Source: Lophium mytilinum (taxonomy: Eukaryota). From it: DNA of 64,000 nucleotides. Below are positions 5,526-36,100 of this stretch, piece by piece (position 1 is the first letter of the stretch; each line of letters begins with the position of its first letter). Made by a program: the position numbers and the translations under genes. The stretch is taken from the NCBI GenBank assembly GCA_010093605.1, contig MU004181.1:1364001-1428000 (forward strand), read 5' to 3'. The notes below the pieces were generated by a model. That model ran no database searches and was not told the origin of the DNA. It saw only the letters and a program-made list of their open reading frames with translations.

Positions 5526-6548
5526 ATGGTCGTAGTCGCAGTCGCCGGTGGATCCTCCCCCGCAGTCGGCCGCTCAATCCTCCAAGCCCTAAAAGCCCAT
5601 CCCAAACACACACCATTCGTCCTCACGCGACTCTCCTCTGCAACTCCGCAATGGCTCCAAGACCTAGAAATCGAGGTGCGGAGGGTAGACTACCAATCCG
5701 AAAAATCATTGCTCTCTGCCCTGACTGGCGTTCACACTGTATGCCCTTTATGCTTCATCCAAGTCAGCGATGTCCCAAGACTTGAGCGACTGAACCCCAA
5801 CTAGCTCATCTGCACCCTCCTCGCCAAGGACGGCACCTGGGCCAGCACACAGATAGCACTGCTTCATGCCGGCCTTGAAGCAGGCATCTCGCGCTTCGCG
5901 CCGGCTGAGTTCGGCTGCGGACCTCTGGCTTCTCCTCACATTGGCTTTCTCGCGCCGTCAGCTGAGGTTCTTGAAGCGTGCCGTGAGGCGAAGAAGCGGC
6001 ATCCACAGTTTGAGTGGGCGGGTTTTCATGTCGGGCTGTTCATGAACTACCTGGGGTATGGTGCGCCGGACGAGGCTAAAGCGTTGGCTGGGAAGGAGAA
6101 TGATGGGACTTTTATATTTGACGTAGAAAACTTGACGGCTGATATACCGCTAACGGCTACTGGGGAAATTCCACGGATGAGCCTGACGGAGATAGGAGAT
6201 GTAGGCCGGTTTGTTGCTGCTGCTTGCGATCTACCGGTCGGCGAATGGAAAGAGGAATTTGGGGCTGTCGGGGAGACTCTGAGGATGAATGAGATTGTAA
6301 AACTTGTGGAACGGGTAAGGGGTCGGACGATGCAAGTGAGGTATTGGAAGCTTGAGGAGATCAACAAAGATCTTTGGAAGGTCGAAAAGGGGGACTATCT
6401 GAAAGAATTCTGGCTCGAGATGGCGACTCGGTATGCAAGAGATGCAGAGGGCGAAGGCATCATTGTCCCTGTCTTGAATGATTTGTGCCCGCAGGTTAAG
6501 CCGATTGGCGTGGAAGAGTACCTGTCGAGATTTTGGGTACCATTGTGA
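5526..6548 (+). CDS. NmrA-like / isoflavone-reductase-like NAD(P)-binding protein (exons 5526-5738, 5805-6548)
   Basis: Rossmann start VAVAGGSSPAVGRSIL; RRVDYQSEKSLLSALTGVHT; after the intron GISRFAPAEFG, GLFMNYLG and LTEIGDVGRFVAAA. Confidence 0.88.
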
Positions 6549-12859: not shown

Positions 12860-14879
12860 GCAGTTCTTCGACCTGCGGAGGGAAATGTTCCCTTGGAGCA
12901 GCAGCTGGACTGTTATCTTTGGAGCATCATGATCAATATGATACCACGGGGCATTGAGACCTTCGGGTAGCGCACTCGATGCACCGACTTGCATTGCGAA
13001 CGGAACGGAAAAGTTATTTTTGGAGCATTTCGCGGAGTTGCATTTCTCGTCTTGGGAAGACATCTAATACCTTAATATAATCACCTTTAAAACAATCATC
13101 AAAGTTTTGAAGCCTTCAACATCTCATCTTCATCGTGCTTTCAGTGATACTTCACATCATAACAGCGACAAGTAGCTATTGACACCGCTCTTGTGTTCAA
13201 TCTGCGCTTAACTTGTCGAAGTCTCTTCGTGCAACATATTTCTACAGTCATGTAGTGGACGCGTGTGCAGTAGACGCGTTCCTAGGTATTGCACTAACCT
13301 TAGGATTTCGAGTGCACCATGTAACCCCTATCAACCAAGTGTGCGGCACCCGTTGGCGCCTGACAACTTGGGCTTGGACCTGACCATTCGGATCCGGACC
13401 CACTGTTCTGAAGATAGGTCTGCGGGATCTACTAGCGTGTCAAGGGTGACATCTGTACAGTATCAAAGAAGAAGGTATGTGCTTACTATTTCAAAGTGAT
13501 AGTCGGAACAGGAGTATCCTGGCCTATCGAGAGGCCAAGTTTGTTCGTCAACAAGTCCACGCGTTTTGTCACTTGATAGAATAGAGGTGATTCCAAGCAA
13601 TGAAGATCCCGATTCCTTCGCGCGACAACACAGTCATCTCGAACTGCCGCCACTGCGAACGAAGAGCCTCGTCGGCATGATAGCGTGCTATGTCGGGATT
13701 GAGAACATGGGTAGAGGTTGGTGAGGCCTCCAGCAGTCCGAAACAAGTATGGACGGATAAATCGAGCCCACGCCCTGTTGCTCACAGAGTTAAGCATGCT
13801 AAGCCTGGTAAGCCTGGTCGTCCTACACAATTAAGCATCTGTATATCGGACGGTTTCCACGCCGCTGACGTAAGAAGACAGAGCATACTTAGTCTAGCCG
13901 AGCCGCTCTTGGGAACTAATCACATCTACCGTGGACGGTCGCCCCACCCTTGCTGCGCCTTTCACTGAATTTGGTGATATTGTTCTACGTGGCTCGTTTT
14001 AGTTCCAGCCTCGCGATACCTAGCCATGATGTTTCAGGATAAGCACTAGGAGTAGGTACTTTGTTTACGTCTGTGCACGTCGTGCAGCTAGAAGTGAGGC
14101 CCTGCAGACTTTGTTTTATATGTCTCTAATTGAGAAACAGAAATGGTATAGAGATAGGCCTCTAAATTTGGAAAATTATCCGATAAAAAAGCAGCAAGCT
14201 ACAGTACATTTTCGCCAGAGCATGGTTGTGTACGAGCCGAACCGTACATGGGTTAGAGCCGCACACCCCCTAGTTCTAAAGCTTCAACATCGGCTACCAC
14301 TTTCATCCTCTTTCATCCTTCAGCCAATCCACTTCGTCAGCAAGCACAGCCATAGAGCACCCTTGTATCGCATAATGTAACTTCATCGAGCAACGTCGTC
14401 CGTCCGATATCATTTGTATCAGGCTTTCACGTTCGAAAACAACCAATTGTCATCCAATTCAAAAGAATTATAAATTGGTGCTTGGAGGGGCACATATGCC
14501 CGTTAATCTCTATTTCTACTCCTAGGTTGTTCACTAATCCCCGCTCTAAGCAATTGTTCTCAATTAGTCCAAACCGCCCTGAACCTCTTGTGCCATGATT
14601 CGTGCGAATCAGGATTGCATCCTTATTGTAGTGTGTGGCTGTACTAAAACACAGCTACAAGCCAGATACAGAACCAAGTTCTTTCATATTTAGCTCGTTG
14701 GATCAATGACTAGCAAGCACCCTTGTATTCCGCAGACCGCCGATACGCAAGACATTGAGAGGCTATGGCCTCTACAGTATACAATTTTCCACTGAAAAAG
14801 CAACAGCATTCTTTATTTCTAATTCATGGACTCGTAGAGTTGCCCGGCGAGATTCAGCAGTTGCTTTGTTACAGGCGAA

Positions 14880-16276
14880 ATGGCTACCAATTCAAGACGA
14901 CCTCATACCAAATCGAGAAATGGATGCAGTGAATGTAAGAAGAGGAGAAAAAAGGTACGTAGTTGCATGTTTCATTGGCCCACTCTCTTCTGAAGGCGTC
15001 TCTAACTTGTCATCCGGTGAAGTGCAACGAACAGCTACCCCGTTGTAGTAATTGTGAGAAATGGAACGTCGAATGCGATCTCTCCATACGCGCCCGACAG
15101 CAATCCGCAGACACTAATACGCAGGTACGCTCGGAGGGGAGCCCGTCTTGGTGAGTTGAGGGCCCAGCTTTCTCTTTCTCCGCTTTCTCCTTCTCCGCTT
15201 TCTCCTTTTCGGACTTCTTGGAGGGAAATCCGAAATTTTCCCGGCATCAGACTATCAACATTCATTTCATTTATTGACGCCAGTATAGGCCGAGCAATTG
15301 TTCCGACAGCAGTACCGCTTTGAGTGGTCCTATACCACCTCCAAACGCACTCACTCTCAATATGCGAGACTTAGAGTTAATGAACCACTATAGCAGCCAC
15401 ACCAGCCTTACGCTCTCCCGGCAGGAGCACTGGCCAGTCTGGCAAACGCAAATTCCCCGGGAAGCCCAATCGTATCCATTCTTGATGCATGATGTTCTCG
15501 CTCTGGGTGCCTTACATATCTCATATCTCGACGCTTCTCGCCGGGAAGCCTATCACCACATCGCTCGCAGCCACCACGATCGAGCACTGGAAGCCTTTCG
15601 CTCGGAGATCACCGAGGTCACTCCTCGGAATGCAGGCGCCATCGCTGCTTCCTCCATTGTCGTTGTCATGTTCGTTTCTGGATCTACAAAAGCCACAGGT
15701 TTCTCCGTGGATACGATATCCTCGTATATCGACATACTTGCTGCTATGAGAAATACTGGCTCCATGGTACATTCATGCAGCTCTATTGCAGGCGGCCCGA
15801 TAGGACATCTGGCTCAGCTATTCCAGGCCATCGGTGATTGCGGGAGTGTTGAAGCCTCGGAAGAGATGGATTCTATCCTCGTCCTCCTCGATGACTTCAA
15901 CCTATCTTCTTCTGACACCTGGGAAGACAAGATCGTCTATCAGACAGCAATAGCAAGTTTACGTCAATACCCCCCAACACAAGTCCACGACACTCCAACA
16001 TGGCAGCAGGTCCTCTGCTGGCCGACACACGTTAGCCCGGAGTTCTTCGCACTACTTCGTGCTAAGAGACCGATGGCGCTTATCATCCTGGCTCATTGGC
16101 TCGTACCAGTGCACACGATTCGACTTATGTGGTTTATGGATGGGTGGGGCGAAAGCGTAATGAGCAGTATCAACGATTTGTTGGGTCCAGAGTGGAGGCC
16201 GGGGATTTCATGGCCCTTGAATGAAATGAAAAGTACTTATAGGATGCCTGAAGCGTTCGACCCTGACCTACGATGA
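14880..16276 (+). CDS. Zn(II)2Cys6 transcription factor, Upc2/sterol-uptake-control-like (3 exons)
   Basis: MATNSRRPHTKSRNGCSECKKRRKK, intron 14955-15022, CNEQLPRCSNCEKWNVEC. C-terminal LNMRDLELMNHY, YPFLMHDVLALGALH, WPTHVSPEFFALL and PMALIILAHW. Second-intron boundaries are ambiguous (15151-15288 or 15125-15283, both in frame). Confidence 0.88.
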
Positions 16277-16944
16277 AGCTGGTAGATGGGAATGGTTGCT
16301 CCCTGTATGTAAGTCTCTACCTCGTGAAGAAGAATTTCTTCCCTCACATACCGTCATCATCCTACGATCTATACTTGCAATCAATTCGCTAACCATGGAG
16401 CCAGGTTGCGCTTGGGGGTATGAAAAAGGTGGCACTTTTATCTTAAACCAGCTGCAATGGGTGTTTTGTGCGTATATGCCACTGCTTGGGTAACTTCAAT
16501 GCGTTTTCAGAAACCTAAACGAGACAGAAGCTCGTCAGTTTGGGCTACATGGAATCTTGTTGGAACATTTCATGCAGTGGCAGGCAAGCGTACAAGAGGC
16601 CGTGCTTGAAGAGTGTGCCACTTTGTTGACGCCCAACGTGGGAGCATAGTCTCTCCACGAGAACGTACAATCTTACAGGGTTCACACCGTCGACCCAGTT
16701 CTCAGCATCATCGTTCACTGTAGAATCGCTGAAACGCATGATCTTCGGAACAAGATATTCGGGACGAATTGAGAGCGATGGGGAATGTTCGGAGAGAGAC
16801 AAAGATAGAGGAACGCTTCCGGACCACGTTCCTTACTGAAACTTGAATAGATGATATGTACTCTGTGGAAGACTAAGTAGTGTGCAGTAATGGCATTTCG
16901 GATTATCTCTGCTGTCGACGCGAAAAAGTTTAACATCGCAAAGT

Positions 16945-17763
16945 CTACCAATCTGTCATCTCCAGCTTCTTCCCTGGTAACCGATGCGCTGATGCAGTAT
17001 CACTAAGCCATTCCAGACATTCCCGGATTCCATCTCTCGTGAGCGCCTTAGTGCCTTGAACATGCTATCAATTTGTCAGACCTAGATCTCTGCTATCCAT
17101 CGAAGCTATCTTACCCATCGCCTCCCCTTGATCTCATGCAACTTCAACTCCCTTTCTATATCACCAACCGACATCGCATTCTAGAAGACTTAGCACCGCT
17201 TTGCATGAAACATACGAAACGGCACCCGCTTACCGGCAAATCCTGCTTATTCGCGACCACCAAAATCGGCACCGCGCCCGGCAGCCACTCATTCAAGAAC
17301 GACCATAACTCTTTCTTGACGTCCGGAGTACGTTCGCGATCATTCGAGTCGACTACCCAGATAATGCCACAGCAGTCGTCGAAGTCCGTGTATACGTATT
17401 TTAGCATACGAAGCATATATGTAGATCCGCTGCCTCCGACATCGAAGGATGTGAATGTTGTTTCGTAGTGCGAGATAGTCTCTAGGGTCAGGCCTACAAC
17501 CAGTCAATCTAAGACAGTCTGGTGGGACGGAGAGAGAGCAGAATACCGATCGTGGGCATCGTTGTGACGATCCTCGTTTCTTCGAAGATTTGGTAGAGGA
17601 TAGTGGATTTCCCTGCCGCGTCGAGTCCGCTGATGATTATTCGTCCGTGGTGGTTATCCAAAGGTCTTCTTTCTTCTGCTTTGCTGAACGATGCGAAGCT
17701 GAAGAGCTGGTGCCACCATCTAGGTAGTGCTAGGATTGGAGGGCTGCTGTTGCTAAACGCCAT
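16945..17763 (-). CDS. Divergent ADP-ribosylation-factor (ARF/ARL)-like GTPase, 4 exons, ~220 aa
   Basis: GLDAAGKSTILY, TMPTIG, FDVGGS, IIWVVDSNDRER, LVVANKQDLP, NAMSVGDIE, TKALTRDGIRECLEWL. Introns 17494-17546, 17181-17233 and 17065-17114 all keep frame. Confidence 0.87.
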
Positions 17764-19089: not shown

Positions 19090-20496
19090 CTAAGGAGCTG
19101 GATGATCTCTCATGTACTCCAGTACCATATCGAGTCCCTCGCTAGAATCGGGCCAATCCATATGCCAGAGATACGGGTGCTTGGACACTTTGATGCAAAG
19201 CGATCGGAAGCTGTGGTCTTCTTGATTCGGGTCCGGAGCATCGTGCAACAGAGATGGATGCTCAGGGAAAGTTTGCGCCTCTTTGATGTCTGGTGCAATT
19301 TCGCCCTTCGGTATCCATTCTTGAGGAATTTTGGGAGCTGAATGTGCCTCAAGGACTGGTGACCACTTCTGTGGTTTAGTGAAGTTGATGGTCGGTGTCA
19401 GGCTAGGTCCTGTGCTGCTCTGTGCCGGTTCGTGTTGAAAAGGCGTTGGGCTCATCTGCATGCTGCTCCTTCGACGATTACGATGCTCTTTCGGTCCCTC
19501 ATGCCTAAGCCGGGAAGCTTCGTCCCTAAAATTTTGCATTCGAGGTAGCCAACGCCGAATACAAGCCGCATCCGTATTCTCAGATGTCACCACCACCCGT
19601 CCTATGTGGCGGACTACCGCTTCTACGTCATTTGGGAAAAAGTAACGCCCAGGGTGTTGTTGAGCGAAGTGAATGGCGCGAGTCAGATCAGCGGCATCTG
19701 CCCCTTGTGGGAGCTTTTTCATGCCAGTCGCTAGGGACTCCAATGGAATTGATCTCGGCGGCCGGTATATCTTGCTATGGGTCTCCGCACGCGTCCGGAC
19801 GCGTGACAGGGACACATTGTTCGGATCGAAAGTGATATTGGGCACCAACATGGGATGCCTCGAGCGTGTCCAGTCAGCCATCGGATTTGTGGGATCTGGT
19901 CCAGCCCTCATCGCATGTTGATAGCCAGCCAAGATTGAGTTGACCGAGTAGAGCTTGTCGTCCTCGTCTGCGATCTCGTCGATAGTTGCGGAACTGTCAA
20001 GAACACTGCCTGCTCGATGGCGGCGGGCAATGTACTGATGTAACTTGTAAGTCATCCCGTTCTGGACCAGTCGGTTCGCGATGGGCCAGCTCAAGATAGA
20101 GTGCGGAAGTAGGGCAATCAGTTCTACCGCCGTCACCGAGATATTCAAATCCAGCGAATGGTTCTTGTGCGGAGCGCTCTTCATATAATCGTAGCCCCGT
20201 GCTCGGCCACCATTCTCGTTGTTTTGCGCTCCCGGCGTATCTAGTTCTTCCCGCTTCTGCCGTTTTCGGTCTGGCTCAGAGCAATTGCGGGGGCTATTGA
20301 AGCCAGTGGTCGTATCATCGTCGTCTGCTAGCGCTTGACGCATGAATCCTGTCATTGGTCTCGGTACTGAATGTGCCACGGGGCTAGCATGAGTGATATG
20401 GTAGACCGCATCGCTTTCTTTGAGTGGTATGAACTTTGGCGGGTTTGAGCCTAGGAGTCGGGGATCGATGCACCACCGTTCAGAGAAAGGCCCCAT
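19090..20496 (-). CDS. Uncharacterised family member A (~468 aa, intronless)
   Basis: Long uninterrupted ORF, first ATG at 20496. Aligns by eye over ~215 aa with the 21602-23605 protein. NLS-like RKRQKR. Confidence 0.8.
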   Translation of the reverse strand: MGPFSERWCIDPRLLGSNPPKFIPLKESDAVYHITHASPVAHSVPRPMTGFMRQALADDDDTTTGFNSPRNCSEPDRKRQKREELDTPGAQNNENGGRARGYDYMKSAPHKNHSLDLNISVTAVELIALLPHSILSWPIANRLVQNGMTYKLHQYIARRHRAGSVLDSSATIDEIADEDDKLYSVNSILAGYQHAMRAGPDPTNPMADWTRSRHPMLVPNITFDPNNVSLSRVRTRAETHSKIYRPPRSIPLESLATGMKKLPQGADAADLTRAIHFAQQHPGRYFFPNDVEAVVRHIGRVVVTSENTDAACIRRWLPRMQNFRDEASRLRHEGPKEHRNRRRSSMQMSPTPFQHEPAQSSTGPSLTPTINFTKPQKWSPVLEAHSAPKIPQEWIPKGEIAPDIKEAQTFPEHPSLLHDAPDPNQEDHSFRSLCIKVSKHPYLWHMDWPDSSEGLDMVLEYMRDHPAP

Positions 20497-21440
20497 TGGT
20501 GTAGGCTGTTTTTGGCGTTGGTGAAACAAGTGGTGGTGAGACTCAACAAGAAATGGACGTCTGAAACAAGGTGGTGGTGGTTGGATCCCTGGCTTAGTGA
20601 AAGAAGGAGCTCGGAGCTACCAAGCAGGAGATTTTGTACTCTATATTCGTAAGCTTGTACATTCACGCCGAGCCTCACGAGGTGCTTTCACTTCGAGGGC
20701 GCAAAAGTTCCCCAGAGTGAATTCATTCAGATCGGTGTCAACGATGCGGAGTGCGAATAGGGACTTACAATGCCTTGTCATAGACATCCGCAGCCCCGCT
20801 GAATGCTGTAGCTGCATGAGAAGCCTCATACCAAGATTTAAAGTCTGCGAAAGAGAGAAATTCAGCACGCATTAGACAACTAAAGAAATTTAAGGTTACC
20901 TTAGACAGCTTCAGTAGGGTAGTGTGTACCCAAGTTGAGAGTGTATACCCAGCGACACCCTTGTATCAGTACGCCCAAGCCCTATAGATGGTGGAAGGAA
21001 AGTGAAAGAATATCTCTCACCAGCGTGGGCAGTAATTCGGCCGCCGGCGTCCGAAGCCCTTGGACTAATTGGATTGGGCCGGCTAAAAACGGAAATTGAT
21101 TGGACGGGTTAACAAATTTTCTCAATCCGGATCAACCCAGCAGGAGACATCTTGCCGCTGTTCTCCGCTCGTAGATCGCTCAAGATTTACAACACGCAAT
21201 AGGACATTCTTTCACCAACTTAAACAAAGACGGGGAAGTTACAAAGTTTTAGGATAGGATTTTCTACATGACAACTAAAACAACCGGAATCAGATTATTC
21301 AAAGGAAGGTGTTCATGGGGAAACACACGAGTCTAGATGAACTGCAAACGATGCATGGGCTTGATCAATTTACTGCCCTGAAAACAAGAGCGAAGAACAT
21401 TAGCTTAAGACTGTAGCGAATTTTGTGAGATACGACGACA

Positions 21441-21526
21441 GGTCAGTCAATTTAGAGACCAGTTCAAGCCGTTCAGTGATTACGTGGCAGCCGTGCTTGT
21501 ACGCGCCAGCCGGTCAGTCAATTTAG
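21441..21526. repeat. Direct repeat GGTCAGTCAATTTAG, two copies 71 bp apart
   Basis: Exact 15-mer at 21441-21455 and 21512-21526, with weaker similarity continuing downstream (gacc..agccgt). Confidence 0.8.
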
Positions 21527-21601
21527 GGGACCCGAATCTAGCCGTCAAGCCTTACACCCCCTCACCTAGATCATTTGCTCTAACGGCGGGAGACAAGCAC
21601 C

Positions 21602-23605
21602 TTAAAGTTGCGTCCAGTCATTGTAGATCGAATCGAAGGGTGTGTGGTTGATATCCCACGGCAGTTGAGCGGCGTTCTGCTCCAAGATCTCGACTATTGC
21701 ATCTAGGTTATCAGGAGTGTTTGCCCACTCGATGTCGTAGAATGACGGATGTTTAGAGAACCGGATGCAACGCGATAGGACGCTATTGTCGTCAGGAGGT
21801 GGATATGGAAGATCTCGCAGTAGACCACCTTGTACATACGGATTCTCCCTGCCGAGTCCCAAATCAGGCTGTTCCGCTGCCGTAGCTGAGAGCGTCCTAT
21901 TTTCGAATAGAGGCTCGTTTGAAATCAGGTGGCCGGGAGCTCGGTTGGGCGTTACCGTGGTCTGATGGCAGAACTCTTCTTCGTGTCCAATGCTATCGAT
22001 CTTCAATCCCGTCGTTGGATTGGGGGTTCGAGAGCCGAAGACAGCGTTGCCTAGGAAGTAAGGGTTCGGAGTTTGTCCTCCATAAGGATCTGCAAGATCT
22101 TCTGGGCCGTTTTCGTTGGCATGTCCTAGAGTGCGCCGGGTAGGCAGTTTTTCCACGTGAGTGCGGCTGACAGTTGGTTCGCTCGTGTGGGGTACCGGGT
22201 TTTGCTGGTCTAGAGAGCCAGGAACGCGTTTCGCCTCACGCTTCAGGCGGTTGCACTCCGCTCGGATTTGCTCTAGTCGCGGGTTCCACCGCGCAATGCA
22301 AGCACCATCAAAGTGATTCCCGGACAGTCGTACCGGTCCACCAGCATCGCTGAGCGCCAGCTCGACATCAGCCGGATACTTGTATGTTCCTGGATGGTCT
22401 TTAGCCCACAAAACCGCTTTGGTTAAGTCAGCTGCGTCATCTCCTGATGGAACCTGATCGACGTCATTCAACAGAGATTCTAGCATCACGTAACCAGGCG
22501 GCCAGAATGTCTGGTCTGGTAAGCAGTGGGTGACTCCACGAACCTGAATGCCAGCGAGAGAGATGTTCTGAGGATCCCAATTGTCGTTGGAGATCTTCTG
22601 CTTGTGGGTCGTGAACGTCCAGCCAGGAACAGGATTGTTGCGATCCTTGCCTGCGCGAAAGGCGTGCTGATAGCTGTGAAGTATGGAATTCCGAGAGTAA
22701 AACCTGTCATCTTCATCCAGTAAAACGTCTGCCCGTGCAGTAGCACGATCAAGAGCAGTGCCCCCAGTACGGTGGCAACGAACGATGAACTGGTGGAGCG
22801 GGTAAGTCAACCCATTAGTTACAAGCCGATTTGCAACATGATAGTTCAGATGCGCATGGCCCAACAGCACTAAGATTTCGACAAGGGTGACGTTGATGCT
22901 CGGAAGTGGGTGGTTTTGATGTGGTGCCTTCTTCATGAAGTCATAGACCCTGCTCGGCTCATCATCTTCTGCAGCTTTGCGCTTTCGATGCTTTCGAGGC
23001 TTCGATGCATTCGTTGTGCAGGTTCCGGAGTTTGTGGTGAGATCATCTGACACCACTGTCTTTGTAGCTGGGCCCTTCTGTTGCTGGCAGTGATCGCCTA
23101 GCAGTGGCGCATCTGAAGATCCAGAGCCATGAAATCGAGCTTCAGTATGATAGACTCCTTCAGAAGCTGTGCTATTGAAGATCGCTGGAGACTGAATGCT
23201 AGCTCCTTCTAGAATGTGGGGCGGCTCGCCGGTAGGTGGCTTGATGTGCTGCAGAAGGTAAGGTGCATTTGATCCCGTGACTTCTTGCTCGTACAATTGG
23301 CCATGCTGGGCAGCAATCGGCTCAGCTGAGAAAAGCGAGAGGTGCTCAAGAGTAGCGCCAAGATCTCCCTGATATGTAGTGGTGTAGAGCTGGTGAATGT
23401 CTCGAATCATTTGCGATGGAAACAGTTCCTTCAGCCTCGCCACCGCCCGGCTATGCTCGGCACCTGGTATGTCCTCAACTTTCATGTCTCCGATCTCAAG
23501 CTTCTGGCGCTTTGCCTTAGGCTCAGACACCTGGGTGAGATCAGCAAATTCAAGTTCGTCCTGAAGCTCGTCTGCTCGTCCACGTTTAGCCCCGGCCATG
23601 GGCAT
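21602..23605 (-). CDS. Uncharacterised family member B (~667 aa, intronless) with CUE-like N-terminal domain
   Basis: Long uninterrupted ORF, first ATG at 23605 (MPMAGAKRGR). Paralogous core shared with gene A. NLS-like KAKRQK and RKHRKRK. Confidence 0.82.
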   Translation of the reverse strand: MPMAGAKRGRADELQDELEFADLTQVSEPKAKRQKLEIGDMKVEDIPGAEHSRAVARLKELFPSQMIRDIHQLYTTTYQGDLGATLEHLSLFSAEPIAAQHGQLYEQEVTGSNAPYLLQHIKPPTGEPPHILEGASIQSPAIFNSTASEGVYHTEARFHGSGSSDAPLLGDHCQQQKGPATKTVVSDDLTTNSGTCTTNASKPRKHRKRKAAEDDEPSRVYDFMKKAPHQNHPLPSINVTLVEILVLLGHAHLNYHVANRLVTNGLTYPLHQFIVRCHRTGGTALDRATARADVLLDEDDRFYSRNSILHSYQHAFRAGKDRNNPVPGWTFTTHKQKISNDNWDPQNISLAGIQVRGVTHCLPDQTFWPPGYVMLESLLNDVDQVPSGDDAADLTKAVLWAKDHPGTYKYPADVELALSDAGGPVRLSGNHFDGACIARWNPRLEQIRAECNRLKREAKRVPGSLDQQNPVPHTSEPTVSRTHVEKLPTRRTLGHANENGPEDLADPYGGQTPNPYFLGNAVFGSRTPNPTTGLKIDSIGHEEEFCHQTTVTPNRAPGHLISNEPLFENRTLSATAAEQPDLGLGRENPYVQGGLLRDLPYPPPDDNSVLSRCIRFSKHPSFYDIEWANTPDNLDAIVEILEQNAAQLPWDINHTPFDSIYNDWTQL

Positions 23606-25036
23606 GGGTGCTAGGTTGCTCTCGGAATTTGTGGTGTGGGGTTGTAATAGCAGCTCGACGAGTTGGAGATCCGATTGGCGAAGTTCCAAGGCTAGGCGGA
23701 CTCGTAGAAACTATGTGAGAATTGTAGGACTTACAAGAAGACGGTGGTGGGGTCTCGAAGGCGATGAGAAGAAAGGGCTTTAACCTGCTGAGAAGAGCTG
23801 CTATATACAATTCTCCAGGCGTATGATTCCTGCACATTCACGAGCGAAGTGCCTTAACATCTCGAAGGTGCCTTGAGGTGAACGTGAGACACTGGACAAC
23901 GACTTCCCACAATGCTCGAATTTCTTGAGAACATTGTGCGGACCTAAGGTTTCGCGTATTTCTGCATCATGGCAGATGAGCCATGCGATACGATCCTGAT
24001 ACATTGTGTAGGAGTCTTGAGTAAGAACCAAAATGACAACGTTGAGCGAGACGATCATAGCGGCTTGACGGATTCAATTTGTCCTTGATAGCGAGCGCCA
24101 TAGGAAGTGGAGATGAGAAGAGATCAACACATAATACTAAAGGAAATGGATAGTATGCATTGTGACAGAGGCGTATACGAAGACTGATATTCTAGACTTA
24201 GGGGAACAAGAGCCAGCAGAACTGAGAAAATTCTAGAGAATTCTTGTGCGCAGGCATGATCCTGCTTTAGGCTAGTAATTTTGCAAACCTCACCGCTGCC
24301 AGCCATGATCGTATTGTATCTCAGCTTAGCCGAAGTTCAATCTATCAGACCTAGCGCCTTTCCAAAGTAGCATTGCGCTACCACTTCGGACGGAGAAACA
24401 TTGCGACGTTGGTACTTATCCGCATCCGAGGACAAGTCCAAGGATGGTTTTTTCATCCCTTACGGGAGGACATTTGGGCACCATCAATCGGTTTGACACC
24501 TGGTTGTTTGGGTTGAGGTGGAGAAACGTTAGTTTTCCGTCCGAAAAGTAAGGATCAGTTCTAAATCTCAATCCAGCTGGAGCGGTTACAGTGGCTGCCC
24601 TCGCTTTCGCTAAACACAAACTTATCATCGGCCGAGCTGCATTTTATTAGCTTTCAGTCATTTAAGAAAATGAAGAAAGGGGTTTGGATTATCCTGTGTT
24701 CCCCGACCTTGACACCGCAGCAATCTCCGAATTTTTGCGTCCGCTAGGGAGAGGGACCGCAAAGAGGGTGAAGCATGTGAACAGACATGCAAACTATCTA
24801 CTCCGGGCTCAAGAAGTGAGCGGCGCTTCCGCATTGGTAATGACGCTTAGGATCGTGGTGACAAGCGGCGGTTGCTACGCGTTGACGCGTTGATAGCATC
24901 TCCGCTTATCCATTCACCTCGCCTACTAATCTCTTTCGTAAGGCCTAGCTTCAACGAGAAGCCAATCCACTTCCTTCTCCGCCTTTACACAAAGCTCTCA
25001 CCACCCGTCGCCAGCAGTGCCAGTGAAGCAACCCAG

Positions 25037-26673
25037 ATGGCTAACAACAAGCTAGACTCCTCCAAGCCCAGAAACGAGCGCAACGCTGCCGAAATTTTCG
25101 CCGTCGCCTGTCTTGCTACTCCGAAGGCGCCCGTGGAAACACAGGCCTCCAAATCCACTCCGAGCGAACTTTACGAACTTGCCGTCTTGGGATACCACAC
25201 CCGTATGCGATCACTCAACCACCACCGAAGAATACAATACGGTCTGCCCCTACCTATTTCGCCAATACTGCCACGTATAGTCGTCGCGGAGTTCATCAAA
25301 CAAGACAAAATGGCGCGAGAGAAGCGAATTGTACCTTCAGACCCCGGCGCTATCGTGAATCGCGAAGCAGAGGAGCTAAACAAGTCTGCGGTGGAGGCGC
25401 CAATGGAGTATGCAGGAGATAATGAAACAGAAGTACAATGGGTTGGGGATGGCGGTATATTGGCGAGAGTCAACAAGGACTGGCATGACGAGACTACACG
25501 GGTCAACATGGCAGGTGTTCAGAAGACTCTGCGAAGGCCAGAATACACACTGCCTGTTGGAGCGAGGTGGCTGAGCTATATGAAAGTCGGAAAGACGACA
25601 TCGAGGCATACCCATAGTTCGAAGGAGTTCGTGGAGGGAGCTGTCCACGAGGATTGCATTCTTCCTCCGGGCGTCCCTATGTCTGGCGTAGAGATTCTGG
25701 TCAGTTAATGTGGTACTTGTGATAAGATTGCACGTCACTAACCTCTGCAACATAGGCATTCTACCCTCATCATCTCCACTGGCCAGCAGTAGCTCTGCGC
25801 CTTATCAACAACTCTCACACTGGAGCTTCCCTTTCCGGCATTATCGTACGTATTTCGCTGGAATCCCATAGGCCCTTATACTAACGCTGAATCCTGTAGT
25901 CGTGGCTTCATGGCCAGAAAGAAAGCACCGTAAGCCGACAAATAGTCAAAGCTACAGTCCGCACTGCTGGCATCAAGTTCACGGGTAACGCAACGTGGAC
26001 AGAAACCCGCCATCAACCTACCCCCACTACCAATATCTCTCCTGACGCCCTTGTGCCATTGCCCCGAGTCGCCGAGAGCGGTCTATGTGTCCCAACCTAC
26101 GCACAACTAGTGGCAAGCCTAACGCATCTCCCAAGTGGCCTCCACGCGCGGGCTCTGACGGCATGCATCGAATTCTGGCTTCAACATAAGGACTTGGACC
26201 TGAATGTGTTGCATACCGCTGAACTGTATCGTGCATTGCAGCCACGCCTGAGGAGCGTGGGGCCAATGAACCTGGATGCTGTGGCGCTGTCACAGTGGAA
26301 CAGCAGCGAGAATGTTGATGGTTCTGGGAAGCGGTTGACAGAGAACCTGCTCGAAGAATACGAGAGGGGCCGTGGATTGGTAGGAGAGAGACCGGACTCC
26401 AGCCTAAATTTTCATATCACGGAGGTCTTGCTCGCTCCGCTGTTTGCGTGGCAGAGAGTGCGAGTGGCTGGATTGAACGAGATCGTGAAGCGAAAGGAGA
26501 GGACCGAACAGCCTGCGAAGGCAGCATATGGCGTACATACGCCTGCAGGCCCAACAGTCGGAAAGAAATTACCGGCTCCTAGGGCGAAGACTGTCAAGAG
26601 GAAGGCTGCTGAGATGGGTGAAGGCAATGACATGAAGTCAGCGACAAAGCAACCGAAGAAAGCCAAGAAATGA
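25037..26673 (+). CDS. Uncharacterised family member C (~508 aa; exons 25037-25699, 25756-25845, 25900-26673)
   Basis: Two canonical introns (GTCAGT..CTAAC..TAG and GTACGT..CTAAC..TAG) join ORFs 24872-25708 and 26053-26673 in frame. The spliced product carries the gene A/B core motifs and a basic C-terminal KRK..KKAKK. Confidence 0.78.
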
Positions 26674-27304
26674 TGTTAGGTCAATCGTTGATGGGGTTGG
26701 AGGAGGTTGTCCAGAATGAAGATGAGAAAGGATTGGTGGTAATGGTGAGCTTGGACAAGCCTTTGGCGATTGGTATGGCTATGCTGTTGTAGGATAGATG
26801 TTTCTCGTAAATGCAATGATAAGGCTAAAACTTTCGATGAGGCTGTTGATGAAAAGTGCACCCATGAATGTCGATTAGGGGAACAGTCTCGGCGTCATGG
26901 GCGCGCAGCCGGACTTATTGCTTTCGAGGAGAGAAACATTGCAGTCTCGAGCATCCGAATTCGCAGTCGTAAGCTCCGAGACTACTTAAGCTCTTTGCAG
27001 TCCCCTAGCCTGGATGCCAACCAGAGACGTCCCTAATGTCTGGCGTTGTTACCTGGGTAGTGGGGACGAACTATCACTATTAGCATTGAAAGGGCAGATG
27101 TAAGGCCCATACACCGGGTAGGCAAGCGTGTTGACACGCCGGGGGAGTTGGTTTTCAGATGGGATGGAAAGGCAGTGTGGCAGGTAGCATATGGGATGAA
27201 GTTGAGACGGATAGGATTAGATCCGCTTAGTCAGCTCCCGTATCATGGGTCACTTGAACCTCAGCTATGGTCCAGAGCTAGTAAGATTTATCTACACTTA
27301 CAAC

Positions 27305-28393
27305 ATGCCTCTTCACAAGCCAAAGTCACAGAGAAGCCGCTTATTCAGGCCCCCCAAGCGATCAGCCTCTGGCACGCCTAAAAATGCAATAGAAAGATCG
27401 CTGTCTCCCCTCGAAAACTTGCCGGTGGAGCTTCTCCAAAAGGTCTTTCTGTACGCCGAGAACGTAGCTCTTGCGAGGAGTAGCCCATATATTGCAGCTG
27501 CGGTCTCATCGGAGCACATCATCCAGCATTTTGCCATGCGTGTGTTGTTTCCTCGGGAAGAAGCAGTTACTGTTGACCAGCGGGCTGGCGGGACCGATTC
27601 TGACGCCATGTCAGATTCGCCGGTGACCGCTCATGTAGGTGGGCAGTCCGAGAGACGTTCAGCTCGCCTCATTCGGAATACGGGACGGCTCTGGCGACGG
27701 TACACTGATTCCTTTTTCAAGGATTCAACTGACATACTTGCCTGTCGCTTCATGACCTGGGAACGGTTCAAGAGATGCGTGCAACTGGGCCTGCCGACCT
27801 TCGATGCGTCTTACTTCGATCATCCCTATCGACTACCCTCCACTTTTCAGGAAATGAAACACCTTGAGAAAGAACAGATACCCCGAAAGCTTCTCTGTGG
27901 TCCTTGGACCTCTGACAAGGCCGCCTTTCTATATTTTCTAACCTTCGTTGGACTGCGGGCTCCCAGGTCCTGTGAAAGCATTGCCAACGAAGGTCTTCGT
28001 GAGGCTGTTTCGCAGCAATCCCCCCGTGCCGTCGCGGCACTCGTATCGCCTTATGTTATGGCTCGGCCCACTACGAAGCTCCTGCGCAGCGCCGTAATCG
28101 ATCATGATTGCCACCTTGCAATCGTTCGCCTTCTTATCACGCCCTGGGAAGACGGCACAGGAACTCCACCATTCCTTGACTTCGAGGATGTCGAGCTTGC
28201 ACGATGGATTGAGACGCAGAAATGCCGCGGGAGCCCCAAGGGATCGTGGCTGGGGGCGTTGCTGAAGGACGCGCGGTTTGGGCTTCTTCGACACATGTAT
28301 AGACGGCCCGGAGGTCGTAATGGCTCTCTAGACGTGACGCCAGATGAGGATGCTACCATCCCCATAGCTCAACGCCGTCCAGATTCAGCCTGA
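27305..28393 (+). CDS. Hypothetical protein with F-box-like N-terminal motif
   Basis: LSPLENLPVELLQKVFLYAENVALARSSPYIAAAVS resembles an F-box start. Also IPRKLLCGPWTSDKAAFLYFL. Single exon. Confidence 0.65.
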   Translation: MPLHKPKSQRSRLFRPPKRSASGTPKNAIERSLSPLENLPVELLQKVFLYAENVALARSSPYIAAAVSSEHIIQHFAMRVLFPREEAVTVDQRAGGTDSDAMSDSPVTAHVGGQSERRSARLIRNTGRLWRRYTDSFFKDSTDILACRFMTWERFKRCVQLGLPTFDASYFDHPYRLPSTFQEMKHLEKEQIPRKLLCGPWTSDKAAFLYFLTFVGLRAPRSCESIANEGLREAVSQQSPRAVAALVSPYVMARPTTKLLRSAVIDHDCHLAIVRLLITPWEDGTGTPPFLDFEDVELARWIETQKCRGSPKGSWLGALLKDARFGLLRHMYRRPGGRNGSLDVTPDEDATIPIAQRRPDSA

Positions 28394-28862: not shown

Positions 28863-31800
28863 ATGACTGCCCCGTCAACGCCGCGCCGGTCATGGCAAGA
28901 ACCGCCAGATGTGTTGAACCTGTCTGCAGATAGTTACACAGCTCAGAGACTTGTGAGGCTGTTCTGGAGCTCTGGAATGCAATTGCTGACAGTTTGGCCT
29001 AGGAACATGCCACGCCCAACCATATCCACCTTACCTCCAGACGCGCATTCATCGGCCCAATACCTGTTCGTCCATCTCATTGCATATAATGATATACCGT
29101 GTGACTTACACATGCATGACAGGAAGGATGGCTTAAAAGTCACCGGAAGAGCTGGTATCAACACCACCTCCACATCAACTATTCCTCCCGCGCTGCGACA
29201 TTCTCTGAAGACCCCGTACAAGCTCGCCAGCGACGTCTATCTGGTCTGGAAGGGCCCAGTGCCTCCGTGCTGTACGGTCACAGCTTCCCACAACCGGACA
29301 ATCTGTCGCTGGAAGAAGAACCAGAAGATGATGGCAGTATCCAAGAAGAGGATAGTGGAGCTGCTGTAGCCACGTCAAGCTCGCCCCCTGCCTTGGAAAT
29401 CCCCAGAACCTCTAGAATACAGAGCGAGAATATTGAGGATGATGGCGCAGACTTTGTGGACGCGCCATCGGAGCCAGAGGATGAAGCTATACCAGACCCC
29501 ATGGACCCGTCTCCGCGTCGACTGAAGAAGCGCCGCAAAAGCGCCCAGTCATTCGTGACTGCCTCTAGCACGTCTTCCAGGGAGCAAAGTCCGGCACGTG
29601 GCTTGGAGAACCAAGACTCGGAAGACCATACCGGGGCGAAGGCGACACCGCAGCGGGGCGACTCCCTAGGCATAGCGGAGGGTAGCATCAACCGAGTGGC
29701 AAGTTCTCTCACTCCTGAGCCTACGGGAGAAGAGACTTCCACATCGTCTTTGTTGCGTAGGACTGACAGGAAGAAGGCCCAAGACGAACCCGAACCTCGA
29801 GCGTCAAAAGGTATGATTGCCAGGGTAATGACTAGACGGTCACACAACGGGTCTGTCGAGACACGTTCACAGCACGATGGCGCAGAAGAAGACGTCAGCA
29901 CTATCTCTCGATCCAAAAGCCATCTCCGTAACCTTGTGCATTTCGACGTCCCAGAAGACTCAAAGCGGGCAGAGCTGCAGCTGAAGGCAAAAGCTGCGCA
30001 GATGACTATACAGCACGCTTCCACCAAAGTTCGAAGGAGGAAGGTAAAAGATGGACTAGTAGTCAAAATGGAGCGTATGTTGATTCGAGTGGACATGACT
30101 GCAAACGAAGTCCCAGAGGACTACGACGAGAACGGCAATCAGAAAATCGAGTCGAGGGTTTCAGAGAAATGGCGAGAGTACATGGTCGTGTGCCGGCAAA
30201 ATACTTCCGAGGATGCAGAATTTGTGCTTCAGATGTATAAGTCTCGGGTAAGATTCTCTAAAATCAACGCCGTTTGAGAATTCATTCTCTAATTACTTTG
30301 TGACAGGTTATTCCAGCGATTGAAGCAGCTAAAACTAACAAGCGTGCGAAGTTCGAAATTCCGCTGGGCCGCAAGATCACCAAAGTCAATCTTTACTCCT
30401 CGTTAGATAAGTCCGTGGTGGTATGGATGCCCTCGTCTCGAGGTACCAAGATCTTCATCATGCAGGCTCGCACTGCATCCAATGCAGTTGAATGGTACAC
30501 CTTTCTTAGAAACGTTCTTGGCTGGCGGCGAGCATCCGAGCTTCAGATCAGCATTCCAGACCTTAGCATTAGCTTGAACATTCAAGATCCATTCGAAAAG
30601 CTGGAAGCGTCACAGAACATAGCCCAGGCCGCAGAAGAAGGCGACGAAACCGCCATTCTGAAAACCATGCAAGAAGAACAGGCCGTGGCTAGAAATTTGA
30701 TCAACCGATGCATGTCCATGCTGGGAGAAACAACGGAATGGAGTGACATCCTGGAGGCCTGGACTAAAGAAAGGCGTATGGGACTAGCCTGGAAGCGGTA
30801 CGACCGACTCGAATGGATTCACGGAGCCAATGAAAGGAAGATGTACGGAACGATAGCAATGTCGAAATCGCACGACCTGGAGCTGAGACCGAAATCGCAC
30901 TATCCTACCACTGCTATAACTCGCAAGAAAAAGAAGACGTTAACAGAGCCTGCTCCAGTAGAAGGGTTTCTGATTCGACTGACTTCGCAACGTGGTGTCA
31001 ACAGGCGATTAGGGAGGTTGTTCTTCAAGCGATTGTATTTCTCTACCCACGATCAGTACCTGGTGTTTTCACTGCCAGCAAAAGCTGCTCCGCCTCCTCC
31101 GCCAAAGCTTCCGGCATCTGCAAATTCTAGGGTCCCAACTGCCCACGATATTGCAGAAAACATCCCATTGATATACGCTGTCGACCCATACCCTATTCAA
31201 GACGGAGAAATAGAATGGTTGGCTTCTGGACATACTGGAACACCTGCGAAAGTCAAGCTTCACGATCGAGATGCGCAGGACGAGGCAGATCGAAAAGCCC
31301 AGATCTTGCTGAATTGTGACGGCTACATCAATCTTTGCAATGTCATGAAGGTTCGAAAGGTACACAAGGGCGAGACCTTAGCGGACGAAGACATCGAGTC
31401 AGGATCTGATGTTGACTTCGACGCCGACGTGGAGGATACCAATCGCGACGACGGCACGACACAAGACTTTGACAACGATCGGACATTCGAATTGGTCATG
31501 CGCAACGGTCTGATAGTCCGGTTACAGGTAAGAACTTGACCCTCTTCTCATGAAACCGATCAAAACTAACAACTCAGTCCTACAACAAAGCCACCAGAAA
31601 GGAATGGATCAAGCGCCTCCGCCATCTCACCAAATACTGGAAACTCCGCTGCGCATCCGACATCGCCCTCTTCAAATCCGTCCGCCACCAGAACCTCTCT
31701 AAGCTCAACATCGACGAAGAAACCGAAGCCTACATCGGCCAGTTCGCCCGCAAGTGGGAAGTGACCCAGTCGCACGCCTCGCCGGAACTCTACAACCTCT

Positions 31801-32408
31801 GCGGCATCTCCTGCTGCCGCACCATCCACGTATCCGGCGTCTTATACCGCAAGCCCCGCATCCACGCCGCCTTCTCCCGCTGCAGCGTCATCCTCGCCGA
31901 GGGCCACCTCCTCATCTTCCAAGACGTCCTCCGCAGCAACTCGGGCAAGCAGCTCGCGCATATCCACCACGAGCGCGTTGCGGGCCTCGATCTCAAGGAC
32001 TGCTATATCTACTCCGGCCTGCTGACGGAGAACGACCTGCTCTACCAGAATCAGACATTCGATAACAATAAACCCGGCCATCATGCGCTACCGCGAATTT
32101 ATCTCGAAGACGGGTGGACGAGCACCGATGAGGATGTCATGACGACGTTTGTGGTTTGGTACGGGAAGTCGAAGGGGTGGTTCCGGGCCGAAGAGGGCAG
32201 CGGTGGCGGCGAGAAGGCCGTGAACGAGGGGAAGAGGAGTCGGATTAAGCGCGTAGGGAAGCTGGGGACTACGGGGCGGAGTGTGGTGTTCCGGGCGAGG
32301 AGTCGAGCGGAGAGGGATCGCTGGGTTTTGGGGATTCAGAATGAGATTGAGAGGGTGCAGGGGGGTACGGGGGAGGACTTTAGGATCACGGAGGAGGGGA
32401 GTGGGTGA
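28863..32408 (+). CDS. SPO71: Spo71/Mug56-like sporulation PH-domain protein (5 exons)
   Basis: N-terminal SYTAQRL|EHATPNHIHLTSRRAFIGPIP|EGWLKSHRKSWY; KMERMLIRVD, EKWREYMVVCR, LAWKRYDRLEWIHG, EPAPVEGFLIRLTS, LDLKDCYIYSG and VFRARSRAERDRWVLGIQNEIER. Confidence 0.88.
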
Positions 32409-33134: not shown

Positions 33135-36100
33135 CTATTTCTCGGCGGCTTCAGGTGCGGGTGCTTCCTCTTTGGCTTCCTCCTCGACGGGCTCGGCTTC
33201 CTCCTTGACGGGCTCGGTGTCCTCCTTGACGGGCTCGGCTTCCTCCTTGACGGGCTCGGTGTCCTCCTTGACGGGCTCGGCTTCCTCCTTGACGGGCTCG
33301 GCTTCCTCGACAGGAGCATCGCCATTGACCTTCGGCTCGGCCTTCTCTTCTTCCTCGACGGGCTCAGGGGCCTTCGACTCTTTCAATGCTGCCTCAAGTT
33401 CCTTAGCCGCTTCGGCGTTGGCCTTCTTAGCTGCTTCGAGTTCAGATTCAGTCTTCGCAGCCTGCTCCTTAGCCTCCTTCAGCTCGGATTCGGTCTTCGA
33501 AGCCTGCTCCTTAGCCTCCTGCAGTTCGGCTTCGGCCTTAGTAGCTTGCTCTTTAGCCTCCTGCAGTTCGGATTCAGTCTTGGTCGCCTGCTCCTTGGCT
33601 TCCTGCAGTTCGGCTTCAGCCTTAGTGGCTTGCTCCTTAGCCTCCTTGAGTTCGGACTCAGTCTTGGTAGCCTGGTCCTTGGCCTCCTCGAGCTTAGCCT
33701 CCAAATCTTTGTGCTCAGCTTGGAGAGAGTCGACCGTCTTCTTGGTTTCAGCTTCAGCGGCCTTGGCAGCCTCGAGGTCGGATTCCAAGCTAGCAACGCG
33801 ACCCGCCTCCTTCTCGGCTGCTTCGAGCTTCGTCTGAGCCTCCTTTGCAGATTCTTCGGAAGCGGCTAGCTTCTTCTCAAGCTCGGCCTTCTCGCTAACA
33901 GAGTTCTCAGCAGCGGCCAGTTTCTTCGTCAGTTCCTCCTGGGCAGTCTCAAGCTCCTTGACCTTTGCTTCGGCAGCAGCAGCATCCTCTTGTGCCTTGG
34001 TAAGAGTGGCCTTGGTTTCCGCGTGATTGGCTTCGGCAGTCTTGAGAGCTTCATCACCTGCAGTTGACTGTTCGGTTTTGGCGTCTTCGGCATCTTTCAG
34101 TGACTTCTCCAGGGTAACAACTTGGGTCTTGATAGACTCGTGCTCTGATTGAGACTTCTCAAGCTCCTCCTTCGTGGCAGCATGGGCAGCCTCTACCTCA
34201 GCAGCCTTAGCTGCGAGTTCTTCTGCCTTGGCCTTCTCTGCTTCGGCGGTCTTCAGAGCTTCTTCCGCAGTAGCAAGCTGGGCCTTGGTGCTCTCAGCCT
34301 CCTCTTGGGCACTCTTCTGGGCAGTTTCGATCTCGGTAATCTTGGCTGTTAATTCTTCGGTCTTTGCCTTGTCAGCTTCGCCGGCCTTGGCTGCCTCCTC
34401 TGCGGTTGCCAGCTGGGCCTTGGTGCTCTCGAGCTCCTCCTGAGCGCTCTTCTGTGCTGTTTCAATCTCAGTGATCTTGGCATTCAATTCCTCGATCTTT
34501 GATTTGTCAGCTTCGGCGGCCTTCGCTGCCTCCTCCGCGGTGGCCAGCTGGCTCTTGGTGCTCTCGAGGTCTGTTTGGGCGGTCTTTTGTGCTTTTTCGA
34601 GCTCGGAAACTTTAGCGGCGAGCTCATCAGCCTTGGTCTTTGCAGCATCCAATTCTTTAGCAGCCTCTTCGGCGGCGGCAAGCTTAGCTTTGGTGCCCTC
34701 GACTTCTTCCTGTGCACTCTTCTGTGCAAGTTCAAGCTCCGAGATCTTGGCAGTCAGTTGCTCATGATCAGCGTTGGCACCTTCAGCGGCCGTGAGAGCC
34801 TCTTCGAGCTCCGCGATCTTGGTTTTCGTAGTCTCATGGTCTGCGTTGGCGGCAGTCAGTTCCTCGTCCTTAGCGCTAAGATCGGCAGTGGCCTTCTCGT
34901 GCTTGCTGTCGGCATCCTTGAGCTTCTCTTCCAATTCAGCAACACGAGCAGCGAGGTCGGTTTTGGCGCTCTCGAAGGCAGTCTTGGTAGCTTCATGATC
35001 GCTGCTGGCCTTCTCGAGTTCTGCTTTCGTGGCTTCGTGGTCCGACGTGGCTTTAGCGAGATCACCCTTAGTTGTCTCGTGTTCAGCAGCAGCTTGCTCA
35101 AGGGCCTTGGTGTGCTCGGCAATGAGTGCTTCATTATCGGTACCCTTTGTAAGGGCCTGTGCAAGCTCCTCCTTGGTGGCGTCGTGATCCGAGGTAAGTT
35201 TAGCAACAGCTTCCTCGTGGGCTGCCTTTGTAGCGTCGTGGTCCGAGCTGGCTTTCGCGAGATCAGCTTTAGTAGCGTCATGTGCAGTGATGGCGTTTTC
35301 GAGTTCGGATTTGGTGGCCTCATGCTCTGCTGTGGCCTTCTCGAGGTCTCCTTTGACAGCGGAGACAGCATCCTCCTTAGCCTTCTCCAATTCGGCCTTA
35401 GTAGACTCATGGGCTGCAAGGGCAGCCTCAAGTTCGGCTTGCGTAGACTTGTGGTCGTCGGTAAGCTTGTCAACGTTGGACTTCGCGGCGTCAAGCTCCT
35501 CGGTCTTGGCGGCAAGGGCGGCCTCGAGTTCCGCAATCTTCTCGGCCTTCTTGTCGTGTTCTGCAGTGACTGTAGCTAGCTGGAGCTTAGATTCCCGGGC
35601 TCCGTCGAGTTGGCCTGTGAGTTCTTCTACCTGCCCAGAGAGTGATTGGCGGGACTGGACGGCTTCATCAAGCTCTTTCTTGGAGCTTTCCTGGAAGGCA
35701 GCGTGGTCTGCAGCAGTCTTTTCAGCATCAGCGGCGGTGGCGTCGAGTTTGGCCTGGATTTCAGAAATTTTAGCCTCAAGAGTAGATTTGGTACTGTCAT
35801 GTGCAGCCTGAGCTTCACCCAGTACCTTCTCTGACTCTTGCTTGTGAGCTGCAAGCAGCTCAACATGGCTGTTGCTAGCTTGCTTCTCTGCCTCCAGCTC
35901 AGCTGCCAATTTCTCGACGGTTTGGTCACTGGCGTTCTTCGCAGCATCAAGCTCGGCTAGCTTCTGCTCGAGCTCCGCGAGGTGGGATCCCTTCGCATCC
36001 AGTTCCGAGCGGACCGAAGAGAGCTCCGCCGAGACGGCGTCGCGGGACTTCGTAATCGACTCGAGGGCCTGATCGTGGGATACCTTAAGAGACTTGACGT

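Follow-up and report, generated by a model that had tools for sequence, protein, structure and literature searches.

Three neighboring genes of the fungus Lophium mytilinum (Dothideomycetes, Pleosporomycetidae, Mytilinidiales), here called A, B, and C, are true paralogs belonging to a domain family that is unnamed and has no Pfam model. They lie in a 64,000-nucleotide stretch of contig MU004181.1 (positions 1,364,001 to 1,428,000; hereafter the window, whose own numbering is used below). Relatives of these genes form linked clusters of ancient paralogs in other fungi, and C is a strongly diverged yet conserved member of the family. We regard this descriptive part as highly probable. The mechanism that we propose, in which the proteins would be nuclear, co-acting subunits with C as a diverged partner under antisense control, is tentative, and for the favored explanation with description and mechanism blended we estimate a probability of about 0.5.

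A, B, and C Share One Core Domain

The three genes had been singled out, from the letters of the window, in an earlier note that described them as divergent homologs with a common core, and the gene coordinates and peptides quoted there are all present as it gave them (Table 1). A and B are single open frames that correspond letter for letter to entries of the protein collection. They are 40% identical over 364 residues (BLASTP, expectation value, E, of 3.5e-71) and share a further conserved motif near the C terminus (A residues 415–467 against B residues 594–646, E 6e-9). The direct relation of C to the other two is fainter, at 25% identity over 225 residues with A (E 2e-6) and a weak match with B (E 0.05). 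A profile of five sequences gives C 17.3 bits, where 1,000 shuffled sequences top out at 4.5 bits, and a 150-sequence profile of the core gives it 54.1 bits (E 1.4e-15; positions 5–222 of the hidden Markov model, HMM), where 2,000 shuffles top out at 5.3 bits. The Mytilinidion ortholog of C scores 53.8 bits against the latter profile, and C and this ortholog match many family copies by tblastn, down to E 4e-8. In a six-frame scan of the window with the family profile, the domain is confined to A, B, and C.

That C joins the family only after splicing, as the earlier note had proposed, is borne out by its gene model. The three exons join into 1,527 nt encoding 508 residues, a product identical letter for letter to the deposited L. 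mytilinum protein BU16DRAFT_587684 (P0006), which exon 3 alone retrieves at 100% identity. Both introns carry textbook fungal donor, branch, and acceptor signals. At the first junction VEIL, from exon 1, followed by AFYPH aligns with EilaFlP of the family profile, and the alignment of C with the profile is continuous through both junctions; this homology across the junctions speaks for the splice model.

An Unnamed Family with a Confidently Predicted Fold

The earlier note had recognized no named domain in the core, and the Pfam comparison agrees: the gathering score of a family is attained nowhere in A, B, the exons of C, or whole C, and at E ≤ 1e-4 there is no family in any of the 58 relatives scanned (58/58). 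The best sub-threshold match, DTHCT at 13 bits (cut-off 24.9), falls in a basic low-complexity stretch of B, and HTH_70 in B is likewise sub-threshold (E 0.082). A word-based protein search returned 2 and 4 proteins only. An exhaustive HMMER search of 1.84 billion representatives returned 486 at E ≤ 1e-3, 417 at E ≤ 1e-10, and 65 at E ≤ 1e-30, and the family thus comprises at least 486 clusters at 50% identity. Among 30 members looked up, the 19 that carry an organism name represent 17 species, all Dothideomycetes, a fungal class with many plant-associated species, and all are annotated as hypothetical or uncharacterized. The five species whose taxonomy was checked are all Pleosporomycetidae; the remaining named species we take to be Pleosporales, partly guided by the 9PLEO tags that some names carry. 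A literature search of titles and abstract openings returned nothing on the family, and six locus tags were absent from the full texts searched.

AlphaFold2 models the core of A (241 residues, 103-row alignment) with a mean predicted local distance difference test score (pLDDT) of 92 and a predicted template modeling score (pTM) of 0.89, the five models ranging from 90.6 to 92, as a mostly helical structure with much ordered coil. Whole C (57-row alignment) is predicted at a mean pLDDT of 64.7, with values of 85–95 over residues 200–390, and the predicted order of helices in its core (217–385) is that of the A core (29–238), both at high pLDDT. Together, the models point to a mostly helical domain of about 220–240 residues, present once per protein. 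Foldseek with the A core against 350,542 PDB chains gave no match at E ≤ 1e-3 (best 2.6), and a search of BFVD gave none. Searching PDB by sequence with the 103-row profile gave two matches with unrelated proteins, both weak (E 0.014 and 0.064) and both outside the core part of the profile. The fold searches with C were empty except for generic long-helix rows on residues 7–71, and the ESM Atlas yielded no usable match by features, its structure rows, based on a poor model (pLDDT 0.33), reaching TM scores of at most 0.35. Helix-turn-helix DNA-binding domains (TetR-type Mce3R, 9b7y_D; LuxR-type RcsB, 5o8y_A) are named here as comparison folds only. Judged against Pfam and PDB, the family and its fold appear to be new; the genomic pattern, a tandem cluster of paralogs, is ordinary. 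A confidently foldable family of several hundred clusters for which we found neither a Pfam model nor a PDB neighbor nor a publication is rare in a well-sequenced class.

Linked Clusters of Ancient Paralogs in Other Fungi

Whether homologs cluster together elsewhere, a check proposed in the earlier note, was examined in named genomes and in metagenomes. In all three named species with two looked-up members, both members lie on one contig with accession numbers 1–6 apart: the A-like 564944 and C-like 564945 of Mytilinidion, with consecutive identifiers, on one 3.45-Mb scaffold; KAF2472842 and KAF2472844 of Lindgomyces on a 1.65-Mb contig; and KAF2004711 and KAF2004717 of Amniculicola on a 754-kb contig. 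Metagenome loci were found with one conserved peptide pattern (DALDLTRCV; 12-sequence alignment), which biases the resulting 31 loci toward one part of the family. At least two family copies are present in 12 of the 31, and three copies in five (L010, L016, L018, L020, and L031); among loci of at least 7 kb, 10 of 11 hold at least two copies, the exception being L027. Linkage is the rule in both samples, and the objection that homologs might be scattered and unlinked in related genomes therefore fails.

The linked copies are mostly anciently diverged paralogs, and their linkage extends across the subclass. In trees of the core (FastTree; 152 and 181 rows), they fall in different deep clades in seven of the eight non-redundant locus groups placed: clades I, III, and IV in L010; III, IV, and II in L016, L018, and L020; III and IV in L012; and IV and I in L009, L014, L031, and L022. 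L021 holds two members of clade IV. Of the named species, Lindgomyces has members of clades III and IV, and Amniculicola of IV and I. Six loci (L010, L012, L015, L016, L018, and L020) contain a head-to-head pair, with an intergenic gap of 315–549 bp in the four whose two start codons could both be located. The B and C genes of the window are also head to head, across 1,431 bp, in agreement with the spacing of about 1.4 kb read previously. The spacers of the clade III/IV head-to-head pairs contain a conserved block of about 130–160 bp with a CACGTG palindrome, 75–83% identical between lineages (Table 1) and present also in the L015 spacer; it is absent from the window, including the B–C spacer, and from L010. 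The plus-strand gene of the clade III/IV pairs has an apparent 5′ intron.

In L010, the three-copy cluster adjoins the ortholog (44–77% identity) of the SPO71-like gene of the window, which carries PH_SPO71 and PH_4, and this synteny indicates that the locus itself is old. The orientation of the SPO71-like gene relative to the cluster differs between the window and L010. In the window, the cluster is surrounded by ordinary core genes, with neither repeats nor AT-rich blocks; a search for terminal or direct repeats around it found only short chance-level matches, and transposase, integrase, and reverse-transcriptase domains are absent from its vicinity.

These observations bear on two other readings of the locus. 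Linked paralogs with no named domain, one of them strongly diverged, could form a poison-antidote, allorecognition, or meiotic-drive locus, as the earlier note had speculated; het genes and Spok spore killers are similarly linked genes without obvious annotation, and an antisense RNA such as that described below could provide stage-specific control. We consider such a locus very improbable. A and C have orthologs at 82–84% core identity in another genus, deep orthologous clades are kept across Pleosporales, the locus is syntenic with that of a distant relative beside SPO71 in ordinary surroundings, and Pfam gives no match to HET or to other named domains of incompatibility proteins in A, B, C, or the 58 relatives, all of which sets the A/B/C locus apart from allorecognition and spore-killer loci. 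Mobile-element cargo or domesticated genes, a reading that would account for many family copies per lineage and for the lack of a known domain, are hardly credible given the conserved position beside SPO71, the repeat and domain searches just described, and paralogs that are too diverged to be any DNA-level repeat.

C Is Strongly Diverged and Still Conserved

In the trees, A pairs with Mytilinidion resinicola BDZ99DRAFT_564944 (support 99–100; 67% identity) and B with the metagenome protein P0004 (support 90), which shares the N-terminal stretch of B. The two pairs join (support 98–99), and Lepidopterella, also of Mytilinidiales, comes next (91–93), which places the A/B duplication inside Mytilinidiales and before the split of Lophium and Mytilinidion. 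No Mytilinidion ortholog of B turned up in the word-based protein search, which does not prove its absence. C and its Mytilinidion ortholog are attached beside clade I (support 95–97) by a very long branch; C has diverged strongly and goes back much further than A and B. Together with the linkage kept in other species, these ages agree with the old, retained multi-paralog module envisaged in the earlier note. A C-terminal motif of about 50 residues (..CI+.SKHP......W.....LD...E..) occurs in A, B, Mytilinidion A, and several clade I relatives, connected to the core by a disordered linker. The N-terminal stretch shared by B and P0004 (LKELFPS..GD..AT.E.L) looks CUE/UBA-like by eye. Pfam matches for it are sub-threshold only: B gives none to CUE (PF02845) and the HTH_70 match mentioned above, and P0004 reaches 10.6 bits for CUE (E 0.49) against a cut-off of 21.1 bits.

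The divergence of C does not look like decay. Between Lophium and Mytilinidion, C is 76%, 84%, and 74% identical over its N-terminal, core, and C-terminal parts, with one gap each, and A is 36%, 82%, and 68% identical over the same parts; by these comparisons, C is conserved between genera as well as A is. The near-invariant set of the family consists of 27 columns, each kept in at least 85% of members, at which A has the consensus residue in 23, B in 24, and C in 14. C keeps E37, R54, N58, W103, H108, L150, P158, G160, A163, L166, T167, and D206 and differs, among others, at seven near-invariant positions (R73H, D162H, D165A, R168A/T, P184 deleted, G195Q, and R212Q), five of which are charged residues. 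Mytilinidion C carries the same changes, and six of the seven positions (all except G195) are kept in 83–100% of members in each of clades I–IV. As far as the sequences and the model can tell, C keeps the fold and the skeleton residues despite this loss of charge. C is a natural experiment in which conserved charged residues have been stripped and constraint has been retained. C-type orthologs were not found among the metagenome loci.

The pattern of retained and lost residues also fits the main rival explanation. In that explanation, the domain would be an enzyme with a new fold whose paralogs work separately, each on substrates of its own; the cluster would be only what tandem duplication left behind, and C would be a catalytically dead pseudoenzyme. 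A polar set (E37, R54, N58, R73, H108, D162, D165, T167, R168, D206, and R212) is kept at 57–100% in each of clades I–IV, lowest for H108 in clade II, and dead enzyme paralogs lose charged conserved residues together, as C has lost five. Like pseudoenzyme partners, C keeps fold and skeleton, lacks a coordinated charged set, and is still constrained; unlike them, it is "dead" only relative to the family consensus. On the other hand, no catalytic motif of a known class was recognized, and there is no Pfam or PDB relative. Furthermore, ancient paralogs of different clades have stayed linked, head to head on short promoters, in several lineages, although gene order in Dothideomycetes is otherwise scrambled (mesosynteny), and independent enzymes need no such arrangement. 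We therefore judge the enzyme explanation improbable as a whole, while giving it more weight than any other rival.

Two other family members bear comparison with C. A member in L030 is interrupted by a 52-nt intron that falls between profile columns 69 and 70, within one nucleotide of the position of C intron 2, in phase 1 where that of C is phase 0. In L031, a 567-codon frame encodes a copy of the domain that is strongly degenerate (36 bits, HMM 23–176). This copy lies about 4 kb upstream from a pair of normal ones, is unlike C by tblastn, and is a second case of a diverged cluster member.

A Spliced Antisense Transcript across C

The RNA data come from one 2014 run, labeled RNA by guess, that contains 47% of the words; its contigs, which lose rare variants, reflect a single condition. 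One contig of 2,523 nt covers positions 24577–25682 and 25743–26700 and then continues for 459 nt, which gives, from the contig size, a calculated end at 27159. Uneven depth and the canonical intron between the two covered parts suggest that the material is RNA. That intron runs CT..AC on the plus strand, an orientation which suggests that the dominant transcript is antisense to C. The longest reading frame from an ATG in this transcript is 112 residues, and it is probably non-coding. Its start would be near 27159, just upstream of the next plus-strand gene (ATG near 27246), a 390-codon frame between C and the SPO71-like gene that belongs to no Pfam family, and a divergent promoter would fit this position.

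The antisense intron overlaps sense intron 1 of C, and the two mirror each other. Read in reverse complement, the sense donor GTCAGT corresponds to the antisense branch site CTGAC, and the sense branch CACTAAC to the antisense donor GTTAGTG. Because donor and branch consensus sequences in fungi are themselves close to reverse complements of each other, one stretch can be an intron on either strand.

Support for the junctions of C is mixed. The RNA to which the earlier note looked for confirmation leaves both unsupported in this lone contig set; homology across both and conservation in a second genus support them. A spliced antisense contig at depth 40.9, with a minus-strand GT..AG intron and both sense introns kept, is also what would be expected if C were not a working protein gene at all but the decaying relic of one, overlain by a minus-strand non-coding RNA gene. 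We consider this quite unlikely. The spliced frame stays open for 508 codons and is identical to the deposited model, Mytilinidion C has the same size, needs a single gap in each part, and at 84% core identity is conserved like A, the family profile aligns through both junctions, the core of C is modeled at pLDDT 85–95, and contigs of this kind can miss a rarer sense transcript or one made in another condition.

How the Paralogs May Act Together

We favor an explanation in which A, B, and C would be nuclear proteins, as suggested by the basic patches beside the domain that resemble nuclear localization signals (NLS) and by the disordered, low-confidence tails of the models. The patches reported in the earlier note are present in the sequences of A, B, and C (KRQKRE; KPRKHRKRK; KRKAAE..KKAKK). 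The paralogs would act together, most likely as a hetero-oligomer, with the subunits co-expressed from shared or neighboring promoters; C would be a non-canonical, regulatory, or "pseudo" subunit, held down, at least in the sampled condition, by the spliced antisense RNA, whose start would lie near the next gene's promoter. Joint membership of one complex, nuclear location, and co-regulation, all of which the earlier note had raised, are plausible. The conserved multi-paralog clusters give a concrete, testable hypothesis of co-expressed subunits of a lineage-specific nuclear machine.

The proposed arrangement has known parallels. In fungi, the histone pairs H2A-H2B and H3-H4 are encoded by divergently transcribed genes whose products are partners of one complex. 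The family resembles these pairs in its head-to-head paralogs on a short shared promoter, in linkage that has long been kept, and, in the window, in the head-to-head B and C. It differs from them in having neither sequence nor fold relation to histones; and the B–C pair differs from other clusters of the family in its spacer of 1.4 kb, against 0.3–0.55 kb, and in not being a clade III/IV pair. In yeasts, antisense transcripts run over developmentally regulated genes, and the spliced, apparently non-coding RNA that runs antisense through the whole of C is similar, with the difference that it is seen in one contig set of uncertain library type, with its strand read from intron ends only.

Several points weigh against this explanation. 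NLS-like patches are common in disordered regions, and tandem duplication could have left the genes linked as a passive legacy. Adjacency in the named genomes is inferred from GenBank protein numbering and not from coordinates, and many metagenome loci are near-duplicates (L015/L016, L018/L020, L014/L031, L008/L009, and L027/L028), so that independent clusters are fewer than loci; the multi-copy groups that are independent number about nine. The positions of A, B, and C, in clade I or beside it, differ from those of the clade III/IV head-to-head pairs found elsewhere, and properties of those pairs may thus not transfer to the Lophium trio. C is placed by a long FastTree branch, which makes its position unsafe. 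The near-invariant residues E/R/H/D/D/R might form a catalytic site and not an interface or a network of salt bridges. Finally, the RNA-like contig skips neither sense intron of C, which, in a lone contig set whose RNA label is a guess, leaves expression of the C protein unsupported; the cover of A and B is patchy (depth 2–5), with parts of A and most of B uncovered, and is uninformative about their expression. A complex prediction for the A and C cores scored 0.00, a value that weighs neither way, since ESMFold2 was run without supplied alignments and the partner fold is uncertain.

A bolder version of the favored explanation is unlikely to hold in full. In this version, the fold would be new, and the ancient paralogs would form an obligate nuclear hetero-oligomer unique to Pleosporomycetidae and encoded in histone-like head-to-head clusters, within which the charge-stripped C of Mytilinidiales would be switched by the mirror-spliced antisense RNA.

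Features of the Locus

Table 1. Positions of the features described in the window and in the metagenome loci
Sequence	Feature	Position	Strand	Details and basis
Window	Gene A	19090..20496	-	single exon, 468 residues; span includes stop
Window	A C-terminal conserved motif, residues 415–467	19096..19254	-	common to B and clade I relatives; BLASTP, alignment
Window	A core domain, residues 95–335 (part folded)	19492..20214	-	profile 219 bits; AlphaFold2 pLDDT 92, pTM 0.89
Window	Gene B	21602..23605	-	single exon, 667 residues; span includes stop
Window	B C-terminal conserved motif, residues 594–646	21668..21826	-	BLASTP against A
Window	B core domain, residues 219–490	22136..22951	-	profile 198 bits
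Window	B N-terminal stretch, residues 45–100	23306..23473	-	common to B-like P0004 (alignment)
Window	B–C spacer between head-to-head genes, 1431 bp; possible shared promoter	23606..25036	.	gene coordinates
Window	Spliced antisense transcript spanning C	24577..27159	-	contig 2523 nt, depth 40.9; end computed from contig size
Window	C exon 1, 221 codons	25037..25699	+	
Window	C core domain, residues 183–400 (span includes introns)	25583..26346	+	54.1 bits; AlphaFold2
Window	Antisense intron, 60 nt, minus-strand GTTAGT..CTGAC..CAG	25683..25742	-	joint 25682>25743, ends CT..AC
Window	C intron 1, 56 nt, GTCAGT..CACTAAC..TAG	25700..25755	+	profile aligned through junction; unspliced in RNA contig
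Window	C exon 2, 30 codons	25756..25845	+	alone matches HMM 40–70
Window	C intron 2, 54 nt, GTACGT..TACTAAC..TAG	25846..25899	+	retained in RNA contig
Window	C exon 3, 257 codons and stop	25900..26673	+	
Window	Next gene, 390-codon frame	27221..28393	+	no Pfam family
Window	SPO71-like gene	29120..32408	+	PH_SPO71 and PH_4
Window	1218-codon frame	33135..36791	-	no Pfam match
L010	SPO71-like gene	13809..17108	-	PH_SPO71 and PH_4
L012	CACGTG block	4732..4894		
L016	CACGTG block	9340..9500		
L018	CACGTG block	1860..2017		
L020	CACGTG block	5849..6011		
L030	Intron in family member, 52 nt	1820..1871		between profile columns 69 and 70
L031	Degenerate domain copy, 567-codon frame	4186..5886	-	36 bits, HMM 23–176

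Beyond the SPO71-like gene, the 1,218-codon minus-strand frame encodes a repetitive protein rich in Ala, Glu, and Lys, evidently a coiled coil, with many near-repeats of about 30–40 residues. It causes the extreme AT skew (−0.385) at 34–36 kb of the window.

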